Source: a virus
Lineage: Duplodnaviria; Heunggongvirae; Uroviricota; Caudoviricetes
DNA length: 4,812 nucleotides
Strand: one strand, 5' to 3'
IMG/VR virus record: IMGVR_UViG_2703718816_000008
The position numbers are program-made. This document shows, piece by piece, positions 3,001 through 4,812 of this stretch (the stretch's first letter is position 1; every line of letters begins with the position of its first letter).

Positions 3001-4812
3001 GGAATAAGCCACAATGGACGCCGGGTTAAACTGACTCTGCCACTGTTCAGGTGAAATAATCTTTTCCGTTGCCAGTGCTGTATTACCGTTTACATCAACA
3101 GATACCAGACCGTTTGTCCCGGCATAGAGTACGAATCCCTCCATCGCCACCATACTTCTTCGGCTCAGGCATGCCTGCATGGAAGGAATTCTGGAGCCAG
3201 AAATTGTGGACGGTGATACCCCACTGAACAGATAAGGCTCCCCCTTTGTCGCCACCACCAGTGACGTTCCCAGCGGACAGATAGCCACAATATCTTCTGC
3301 CGTCGTGTGACGATTCACTTCCGGCCATGCATACGGCAGATACGCTTCCGAAAACATCACTTCATTACCGGCAAACCCGGCGGCAATACCATTAGCCATC
3401 AGGCAAAGGCCTGTCATATTCTCTGGCGGCGGCAGGTAATCCCATGTCGCCAGAGAAGGTCCAAGGTTTTTCCCCGGTATTTTGTCCGTGTAACTGAGCA
3501 CGGATGCATCCAGTTCAGCCACAAGTAAAAAATCCGCCTCCCCTCCACCTGATGCAGAGCGATAAATCCGGCGGCGTTTAATACTGGCATTCTGCAATGG
3601 CACCGGAGACAGCGTCAGCTGTACCGCAGTCCCCGGAGTACGGAGTGTTACCTCCAGAGACGCCGGACCTGGCGGACCTTCTTCACCATAATCTGAGACA
3701 AAGGTTTCCGTATAAAACCGGGTTTCGTCATCATTCGGGTTATCGTCAGAAACATCACCGCCCTGCTGAACAGTACAGACAGGTGCTGTCGTCGGCGCGG
3801 GGATCCCCAGACGATACGATGATGCCGGATGATTCCCGTCCCCTTTTGTGGCAATGGTTGCATCCGTCACTTTAGGAAAACGCCCGTCAGTGTAGTAAAT
3901 ACGCCCGTGGGGGTCCTGAGCGATCGGACTGCGGATCACATCCACCACATCCGTCCATGCAAACCAGAAATCGTCACGGTAATGAAAAATTGTTTTTGGC
4001 TTAATTGTGAATGTTTTCTCAACCTCTGACATCTCGTGTTCAGGCGTGATCACGCCATAGCGAAAATGACAGTTTTCTGCCAGTACAGCAGAATTATCAG
4101 GAAGCATAGATGCAATAACGCCTGGCATCATCCCGCGCATAGTGGTTATATCGATATAAGGCATGGTTATCTGGTATCCGAAAATTTGAATGGCAGACGA
4201 GGTGGAATAATTAATCCCGGCACAATTTCACGACGTCAACCCGTACAGGAGTCGCTCTTACCGGCCCCCTCCCGGTGAAAACGCATATTGCTCTGTTTAC
4301 AAAAACCGCCCGTCCACATGCAGGGAATTCGCAATGTCCGGCGAAAATGGCATCGTAAATGAAGCATGTAATCGCGCACGGGAAAAATATGGATTTCCAA
4401 AAATCTGAATATTCTCCGCCGTGAAAAAATGCGAACAACATCACTTCACTAATCAGCCTGATATGGCATACTTAGCACGCTAACTATGATAACAAACTAA
4501 TACCCTAAAACTCATGGTTCCGGGACTGGTCGTGGTCCCGTTTTTTTTATTCAGCCAGCAGGCCATCCGACAACATAACTGCGGATCGCCTTCAGCTCTG
4601 TCAGCGCCTCAACCTCTGCTTTCATCTGCAACTGCCGTGTATTAATCTCCACTCCCTTCGCAAACATCGCCTGCTCTGTCGCATCTGCCAGCGCAATGAT
4701 GTCAGCCGCCGTTACCGGCACCACATTATTATCCCCGTCCGTCCAGGCAAAACCTTCCGGAAGACGGTTATTCTCTGCCATCAGGCGTGTCGTGCTTATC
4801 CTGGACAACGTC

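Follow-up and report, generated by a model that had tools for sequence, protein, structure and literature searches.

Why does a stretch of prophage DNA in which all credible genes lie on the minus strand carry a textbook terminator that points the other way? The question is posed by positions 4521-4548 of a 4,812-nucleotide (nt) stretch of a tailed-phage genome (Caudoviricetes; IMG/VR record IMGVR_UViG_2703718816_000008), the whole of which is referred to below as the window. There, a hairpin followed by eight T residues stands in a spacer next to the end of a tail-fibre-assembly-like (tfa-like) gene of the opposite strand, which encodes a DUF4376 protein. We consider it very probable that the hairpin is a unidirectional terminator from the end of a lambdoid prophage, placed behind the relic of a YkgJ-family gene, that it moved into the present prophage with the DUF4376 cassette, and that it is now orphaned.

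The hairpin and the gene relic upstream

The plus-strand features on which the argument turns are, in order along the window:

4251..4408, plus strand: 5'-truncated YkgJ-family pseudogene, as seen in RefSeq annotation, alignment, translation and Pfam
4334..4408, plus strand: open reading frame (ORF) of 24 codons singled out in the preliminary description of the locus, corresponding to Met86 to the stop codon of the YkgJ-family gene and not an independent gene
4409..4520, plus strand: 3' untranslated region (UTR) of 112 nt, from the ykgJ-family stop codon to the hairpin, phage-specific DNA
4521..4540, plus strand: terminator stem-loop CGGGACTG-GTCG-TGGTCCCG, with 8 base pairs (bp) on the plus-strand RNA, including 2 G-U pairs
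4541..4548, plus strand: T8 tract, the U-tract of the plus-strand terminator, T6-T9 in relatives

The sequence of 4521-4548, CGGGACTG GTCG TGGTCCCG followed by the T8 TTTTTTTT, has what is expected of an intrinsic terminator, namely a G+C-rich stem with a short loop and a U-tract directly 3' of it, on the plus strand only. RNAfold gives an 8-bp stem of -11.9 kcal/mol for that strand, and a consensus scan returns the site as the sole strong terminator-like one on the plus strand of the window (8 pairs, 5 of them G-C, a 4-nt loop and T8). In the minus-strand RNA both G-U pairs turn into A-C mismatches, which reduces the stem to 6 bp around an 8-nt loop, with A8 on the 5' side and GAACCAUGAGUUUUAG, no adjacent U-tract, on the 3' side; the pattern of a bidirectional terminator, in which A-tract and U-tract flanks provide both strands with a hairpin plus U-run, is not found at 4521-4548. 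The preliminary description had reported both the plus-strand orientation and the A8 that precedes the minus-strand hairpin, and sequence, scan and the folding of both strands agree with it on each count.

We also applied a strict terminator test, for which a stem had to have 7 bp or more, 4 or more of them G-C, and a loop of 3-8 nt, with T at 7 or more of the next 8 bases. By this test the minus strand of the window has no site along its whole length, and a site of such quality on either strand arises in 20 of 1,000 dinucleotide-preserving shuffles of the whole window (2%). The local fold around the hairpin has a z-score of -2.4, owed to unrelated neighbouring stems. Taken together, hairpin and T8 are predicted to form a unidirectional Rho-independent terminator of the plus strand.

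What gene did it serve? The preliminary description saw no evident plus-strand gene, which needs correction: in a genome identical to the window over 4100-4812 (locus L001), RefSeq places a single plus-strand feature in the spacer, a pseudogene at window positions 4271-4408 that ends 113 nt upstream of the hairpin. It is labelled as a YkgJ family cysteine cluster protein, incomplete and missing the N-terminus, and its stop codon is that of the 24-codon ORF. By alignment, 4251-4408 corresponds to nt 175-330 (about 156 nt, codons ~59-109) of a full-length prophage gene in locus L002, at 93.7% DNA identity and with a 2-nt insertion near 4270. The translated relic matches residues 65-109 of the full-length prophage YkgJ at 44 of 45 positions (98%) and the same residues of K-12 YkgJ at 76%. 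Against the Pfam profile PF03692 (CxxCxxCC), it covers positions 52-85 of 85 and scores 23.0 bits, exactly at the 23-bit cut-off, compared with 46.1 bits over positions 1-85 for the full-length prophage relative. Codons 1 to ~58, the CxxCxxCC cluster and the promoter are gone, and there is an in-frame stop codon upstream. On its sequence, 4251-4408 is thus no gene but a gene relic, the last third of a prophage ykgJ-family gene.

Elsewhere in the spacer, a stem GUGAAGUGAUGU...GCAUUUUUUCAC is possible in the minus-strand RNA of 4420-4450; its U-run lies inside the stem, hence it makes no terminator.

The same element in relatives and its transfer

The arrangement from which the window's relic derives can be seen intact. 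In L002, at a lambdoid prophage end that adjoins potB, a full-length 330-bp (109-codon) YkgJ-family gene (5827-6156) converges on a DUF4376 gene and has behind it the UTR and hairpin of the window at 99.3% identity; the hairpin likewise follows an intact ykgJ-family gene in L085-087. Strain S1-CAM-01-A (NZ_CP145714, ~2,728,148-2,728,620) is among those with the full-length gene, and E. coli ES5 (NZ_CP133871, ~2,670,484-2,670,770) and the OkiPb017xx strains are among those with the relic. The 152-nt segment 4409-4560, from the stop codon through the hairpin, recurs at 94-100% identity in about 21 loci, and stands directly 3' of the gene in all loci in which the gene is intact. The stem does not vary among about 24 close copies; their loop alternates between GTCG and GCCG, and their T-run varies from T6 to T9.

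A second prophage lineage (L088, L089, L103, L128-133, L139, L140 and L147, the last being phage 1720a-02) has a 3' UTR that aligns poorly with that of the window. At about 150 nt past the stop codon, shortly ahead of the stop of the convergent tfa, it has a hairpin of another sequence, ATGGGGGA...TCCCCCAT with CTTTTTG behind it, which is again in the plus orientation only and lacks a minus-strand U-tract. Chromosomal ykgJ genes, which converge on yagU, have their own plus-strand terminator about 47 nt after the stop codon, the corresponding distance in prophages with an intact ykgJ-family gene being 113-140 nt. Because the intact-gene copies, the second lineage and the chromosomal genes all have one, a plus-oriented terminator is, as far as can be read from these sequences, the rule after ykgJ-type genes, the hairpin having been re-created in diverged DNA. 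In one second-lineage locus (L088, 3435-3500), the hairpin is flanked by the complementary stretches AAUAAUGACA and UGUCUGUUAUU, which could extend the stem in a read-through RNA, as in lambda sib; the extended fold is not better than shuffles (z = -0.5).

The terminator of the window is not the native ykgJ terminator. Homology between prophage and chromosomal ykgJ ends at about nt 314-317 of 330, and the UTR (4409-4520) has no similarity to the 3' flank of K-12 ykgJ, the ykgJ-yagU spacer. Furthermore, UTR and hairpin stand directly beside a DUF4376 gene, with no ykgJ, at lambdoid prophage ends at ompW (L148, 2501-2660) and at tRNA-Ser (L149, 2501-2680), where the DNA becomes homologous to the window at a point equivalent to roughly the last three codons of ykgJ. 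Because homology to the chromosomal gene stops and the UTR and terminator occur without ykgJ, the terminator is phage DNA, and the arrangement in L148 and L149 suggests that it predates the capture of ykgJ by these phages. A distant BLAST search of 4251-4560 against the phage collection gave two partial matches, both within the ykgJ coding part, and left the UTR and the hairpin unmatched, and no isolated-phage record in that collection has the element formed by the two.

Several loci place an integrase upstream. Phage 1720a-02 has, in this order, an integrase (plus), a short ORF (plus), a ykgJ relic (plus), the hairpin and tail-fibre genes (minus); L150 has an xis-like gene and int (plus) and then the first part of the UTR; and L104 (1245-2948) has a P4-type integrase (plus) and, 220 nt downstream of it, a prophage ykgJ-like gene that is frameshifted. 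The element is thus co-oriented with the upstream int in L147, L150 and L104. In such lambdoid prophages the terminator would sit at the end proximal to the attachment site, with a few bases between it and the stop codon of the DUF4376 tfa-like gene, the last of the tail genes, and point inward, where it would stop plus-strand transcription before this ran antisense into the tail-fibre genes. The incoming transcription could originate in the prophage ykgJ-family gene, in the upstream integrase, or in host genes such as potAB or tRNA genes across the attachment site. Where a prophage has kept its ykgJ-family gene intact, the hairpin would be the terminator of that gene.

How did it come to lie in the present window? 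The remaining features bear on this:

2539..4164, minus strand: late structural gene of 541 amino acids (aa), of the 933W-like module, downstream of the spacer on this strand
4165..4196, minus strand: leader of the 541-aa gene, common with 933W-like Stx phages
4197..4250, no strand: junction filler of 54 nt between Stx-phage-type DNA and the ykgJ relic, with the palindrome GGAATAATTAATCC at 4204-4217
4551..4812, minus strand: 3' end of the DUF4376 (tfa-like) gene, which runs off the window (Pfam PF14301, E = 8.9e-11)

The window is an Escherichia coli prophage. Over positions 26-4196 it has 99.1-99.7% identity with the short-tailed 933W-like Stx phages that match it best, for example Shigella phage 75/02 Stx, and this homology ends at 4196. 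Along the minus strand, the 3' end of the DUF4376 gene is followed by a 386-nt spacer, the 541-aa late gene, a tail-tip fibre gene and more genes through Lom. The DUF4376 gene, which is the only credible gene near the hairpin and had already been called tfa-like, is 609 bp at full length in L001 and converges on the ykgJ relic. To the right of the window, in L001 9078-11748, the tail-fibre and phage adaptor genes upstream of DUF4376 are annotated as frameshifted pseudogenes, and with these genes frameshifted the prophage may be defective.

Canonical 933W-like phages have a Gp38-like adhesin gene at the place of the window's DUF4376 gene. L003, L118 and L119 combine the two states: Gp38 is followed by a 3' relic of DUF4376, the hairpin and, shortened by a deletion of 45 nt, the ykgJ relic known from the window, and the left junction is common with the window. 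Among 5,426 complete E. coli genomes, the 54-nt filler is confined to the 17 that have this junction, and this restriction to junction-bearing genomes argues for one ancestral event. A search for the source of the filler found none; the filler may faintly resemble the ykgJ codons just upstream of the relic.

The loci show directly that the sequences are homologous, that the gene is truncated, that the structure is strand-specific and that the arrangement recurs; the order of the recombination events we infer as follows. A DUF4376 cassette from a lambdoid prophage would have replaced the Gp38-type adhesin cassette of a 933W-like short-tailed prophage, and its 3' flank, comprising the terminator, the 3' UTR and the last third of ykgJ, would have been transferred with it. 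The promoter and the first ~60 codons of ykgJ would have been lost, leaving the terminator orphaned. Only 10 nt separate the end of the hairpin from the tfa-like (DUF4376) stop codon, with 2 nt between the T8 and that codon (TCA, 4551-4553), so that nearly any transfer of an intact tfa would bring the hairpin along.

Truncation of this kind recurs. C-terminal ykgJ relics in prophages start at nt 175, 189, 227, 233 and 259, N-terminal relics end at nt 66, 88 and 94, and several "full-length" prophage copies are frameshifted. To judge from these sequences, prophage ends often break or decay within the ykgJ-like gene. Among viral contigs (L122-L127, L134-L138, L141-L145), many keep just the first 66-94 nt of a ykgJ-like gene and others just the last 72-156 nt.

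Canonical Stx phages hold a fainter trace. In Shigella phage 75/02 Stx (L004), positions 9201-9272, in the spacer between the Gp38-like adhesin gene and the next late gene, are a decayed ykgJ-like 3' relic of the second lineage (local alignment score 54, compared with a maximum of 27 in 300 shuffles), without a plus-strand terminator. The equivalent DNA of the window has been replaced to the right of 4196. Because canonical Stx phages have this decayed relic there, ykgJ-derived DNA at the joint predates the event in the window.

Present role and competing explanations

The orphan terminator is probably still competent, and would stop stray plus-strand (antisense) transcripts before they reach the DUF4376 and tail-fibre genes. 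Upstream of the spacer, the plus strand holds nothing but the antisense of late genes. Because the 541-aa gene lies downstream of the spacer, late transcription of the minus strand must cross the hairpin, and a one-sided terminator, as predicted, is compatible with this in that it leaves the late transcript free to continue into that gene. Insulation of the tail genes from antisense transcription, which the preliminary description had offered as one of two explanations, remains the most plausible current effect as judged from the sequence. An orphan terminator that faces the late operon could in this way reduce antisense transcription over host-range genes.

Several points weigh against an orphan terminator that came with its cassette and still works. 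The hairpin alone, in its own 41 nt, is not significantly more stable than shuffles (z = -1.6), and termination in vivo is, for every copy of it, predicted from sequence and folding. Within the lineage of the window the stem never varies, which leaves no column-by-column covariation, and what the second lineage lends in support is a re-created hairpin with 3' arms in a shifted register, not strict compensatory change. Given the invariant stem within the lineage and the shifted 3' arms between lineages, an alignment fitted to the structure would be circular. That the hairpin has been kept while ykgJ was truncated many times could reflect hitch-hiking and nothing else. Finally, the cassette exchange does not account for the 54-nt filler at 4197-4250, and the reconstruction of the recombination event is to that extent partial.

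The same retention could be explained by a small RNA (sRNA), independent or derived from the 3' UTR, that ends at the hairpin, perhaps one of about 50 nt from 4463-4490; the UTR and terminator would then have been kept for its sake after ykgJ decayed. They persist with ykgJ truncated at any of at least five different points and even where it is lost completely, the 112 nt of the UTR are an unusual length, and a sigma-70-like ATGGCA-16-TATGAT stands at 4463-4490, upstream of the terminator. However, this site and one at 4066-4094 are the sole promoter-like matches of the plus strand, whereas 6.4 +/- 2.4 of 9/12 quality are expected per window by chance. The match at 4463-4490 is thus at chance level (9/12), falls in the stretch of UTR that aligns poorly between the lineages, with the second lineage differing at most positions, and was rejected as a promoter. 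A search of the whole window against Rfam 15, on both strands and with E up to 1, returned no RNA family; the UTR folds no better than shuffles (z = -0.75), with no strongly conserved seed-like block common to both lineages; and the exact hairpin sequence was not found in the literature searched. Evidence for a dedicated transcript from the spacer was thus found in none of the Rfam, folding, promoter and literature checks, and proximity to the tfa stop codon accounts for the retention. An sRNA is, in our assessment, very unlikely. Of the earlier proposal that an unannotated plus-strand transcript ends here, the core survives, in that a plus-strand transcription unit did end at this place, and the small RNA or tiny ORF that it invoked is unsupported.

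That tiny ORF, 4334-4408, was put forward as a candidate gene, and a functional micro-protein whose mRNA ends at the terminator would give the hairpin an owner. The ORF is present as described, with AGGGA (4322-4326) 7 nt before the ATG and a frame open to 4408, and it is intact in all copies of the window's lineage. Yet it comprises codons 86-109 of a known family, its supposed Shine-Dalgarno sequence is part of the codons of the conserved C-R-E-F-A motif, it has no evident promoter, and upstream of it lies late-gene antisense. When conservation was checked in other relic copies, the start codon turned out to be ATA (L128-131, L133 and L147) or GTT (L139 and L140) in second-lineage relics, with the hairpin kept, and on this ground the ORF was rejected as a gene. 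We read it as the tail of the YkgJ-family pseudogene, with no conserved micro-ORF, and give a micro-protein almost no weight.

Could the hairpin serve the minus strand instead, as a bidirectional or collision-type terminator or as a 3' stabilizing stem-loop of the DUF4376 (tfa) message? It follows the tfa stop by 10 nt between convergent genes, tfa is the last late gene in lambdoid prophages, and many convergent-gene terminators in E. coli are unlike classical intrinsic ones and may act by RNA polymerase collision (bioRxiv 10.1101/2022.10.23.513370). The minus-strand structure, however, has a 6-bp stem, an 8-nt loop and GAACCAUGAGUUUUAG in place of a U-tract, the strict scan of that strand was empty, the second-lineage hairpin is also plus only, and the late operon must pass the spacer into the 541-aa gene and beyond. 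We hold a minus-strand role to be highly unlikely; a collision-type contribution to termination between the convergent units is possible, and nothing here requires one. Nor do we think it at all credible that a chance inverted repeat without biological meaning has come to lie beside a T-run. It is true that a lax scan finds 8 terminator-like sites in the window, compared with 4.3 +/- 2.0 in shuffles, and that the z-score of the hairpin is just -1.6, but a site of this quality is rare in shuffled windows, as seen above, this one falls exactly between convergent genes and follows an intact gene in relatives, and the second lineage has a different hairpin at the same place.

A bolder version would have the ~140-nt UTR and terminator form a selected "end-cap" of lambdoid prophages that faces inward and insulates the tail and late operon from host or integrase read-through, and maybe also acts as a tI/sib-like element or an sRNA 3' end. 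If true, it would account for a module that has survived the decay of the adjacent ykgJ at least six times independently and that moves from one phage type to another together with tail-fibre cassettes; we think this unlikely.

A relic-borne terminator grafted in with its cassette turns what looks like a gene-less terminator inside a late operon into a probable hitch-hiking relic, and removes a spurious small-ORF or sRNA candidate. It also makes the site the marker of a mosaic joint, at which an stf/tfa-type chaperone cassette of lambdoid origin would have been grafted into a 933W-like short-tailed prophage of Stx type, and at which ykgJ-derived DNA recurs in many decayed forms, including the faint relic in canonical Stx phages.

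Comparison with known systems

The element shares with the intrinsic terminators known from E. coli and its phages a stem of 8 bp that is rich in G+C, a loop of 4 nt, an adjacent run of 8 U, a position after a co-oriented gene and between convergent genes, and a structure that works in one direction. It differs in that the gene served is, in the window, a promoterless 5'-truncated pseudogene. Chromosomal ykgJ (E. coli K-12 b0288; PF03692, UPF0153) is likewise a single gene with its own plus-strand terminator that converges on a neighbour. The window, in contrast, retains only the last ~50 codons, without the CxxCxxCC motif; the last ~5 of these codons, the 3' UTR and the terminator are phage-specific; and the terminator lies 113 nt from the stop codon, as opposed to ~47 nt in the chromosome.

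In phage lambda, the tI/sib terminator lies beyond attP in the b region and is oriented like the int transcript. The element resembles tI in position and orientation, with a terminator on the tail-gene side of the attachment site that is oriented like int, as in phage 1720a-02 and L150. It differs from tI/sib in that a search around the hairpin of the window's lineage found no extended stem of the RNase III type, and from lambda in lacking sequence similarity, the phage collection having no match over the UTR.

The closest published setting is that of lambdoid prophages with ykgJ/ecpE-derived DNA near their ends, in which 96 bp that derive from the ecpE-ykgJ intergenic region are used by other phages as an attachment site, termed "attB-in-PP_2" (Nakamura et al. 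2021, PLoS Pathog, PMC8112680). Our loci agree with it in having ykgJ-region DNA near prophage ends, and in several the prophage ykgJ is preceded by K-12-like DNA of the ecpE-ykgJ intergenic region, in one case with an integrase directly before it. In that locus (L104), the DNA between integrase and gene is 96% identical to the K-12 ecpE-ykgJ intergenic region and the gene itself about 80% identical to K-12 ykgJ; L104, and also L105-L117, look like the "prophage integrated into a prophage" situation of that study. An attB-in-PP_2 site in the window itself was considered and ruled out, the K-12 intergenic region matching several prophage loci and not the window. Indeed, that site derives from the region upstream of ykgJ, whereas the window keeps just the 3' third of the gene and what follows it. 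The locus described here is therefore a minor addition to the published record of ykgJ-region DNA at prophage ends that is usable as an attachment site for other phages: the element is one more example of a well-known kind, an ordinary remnant left at a mosaic joint.

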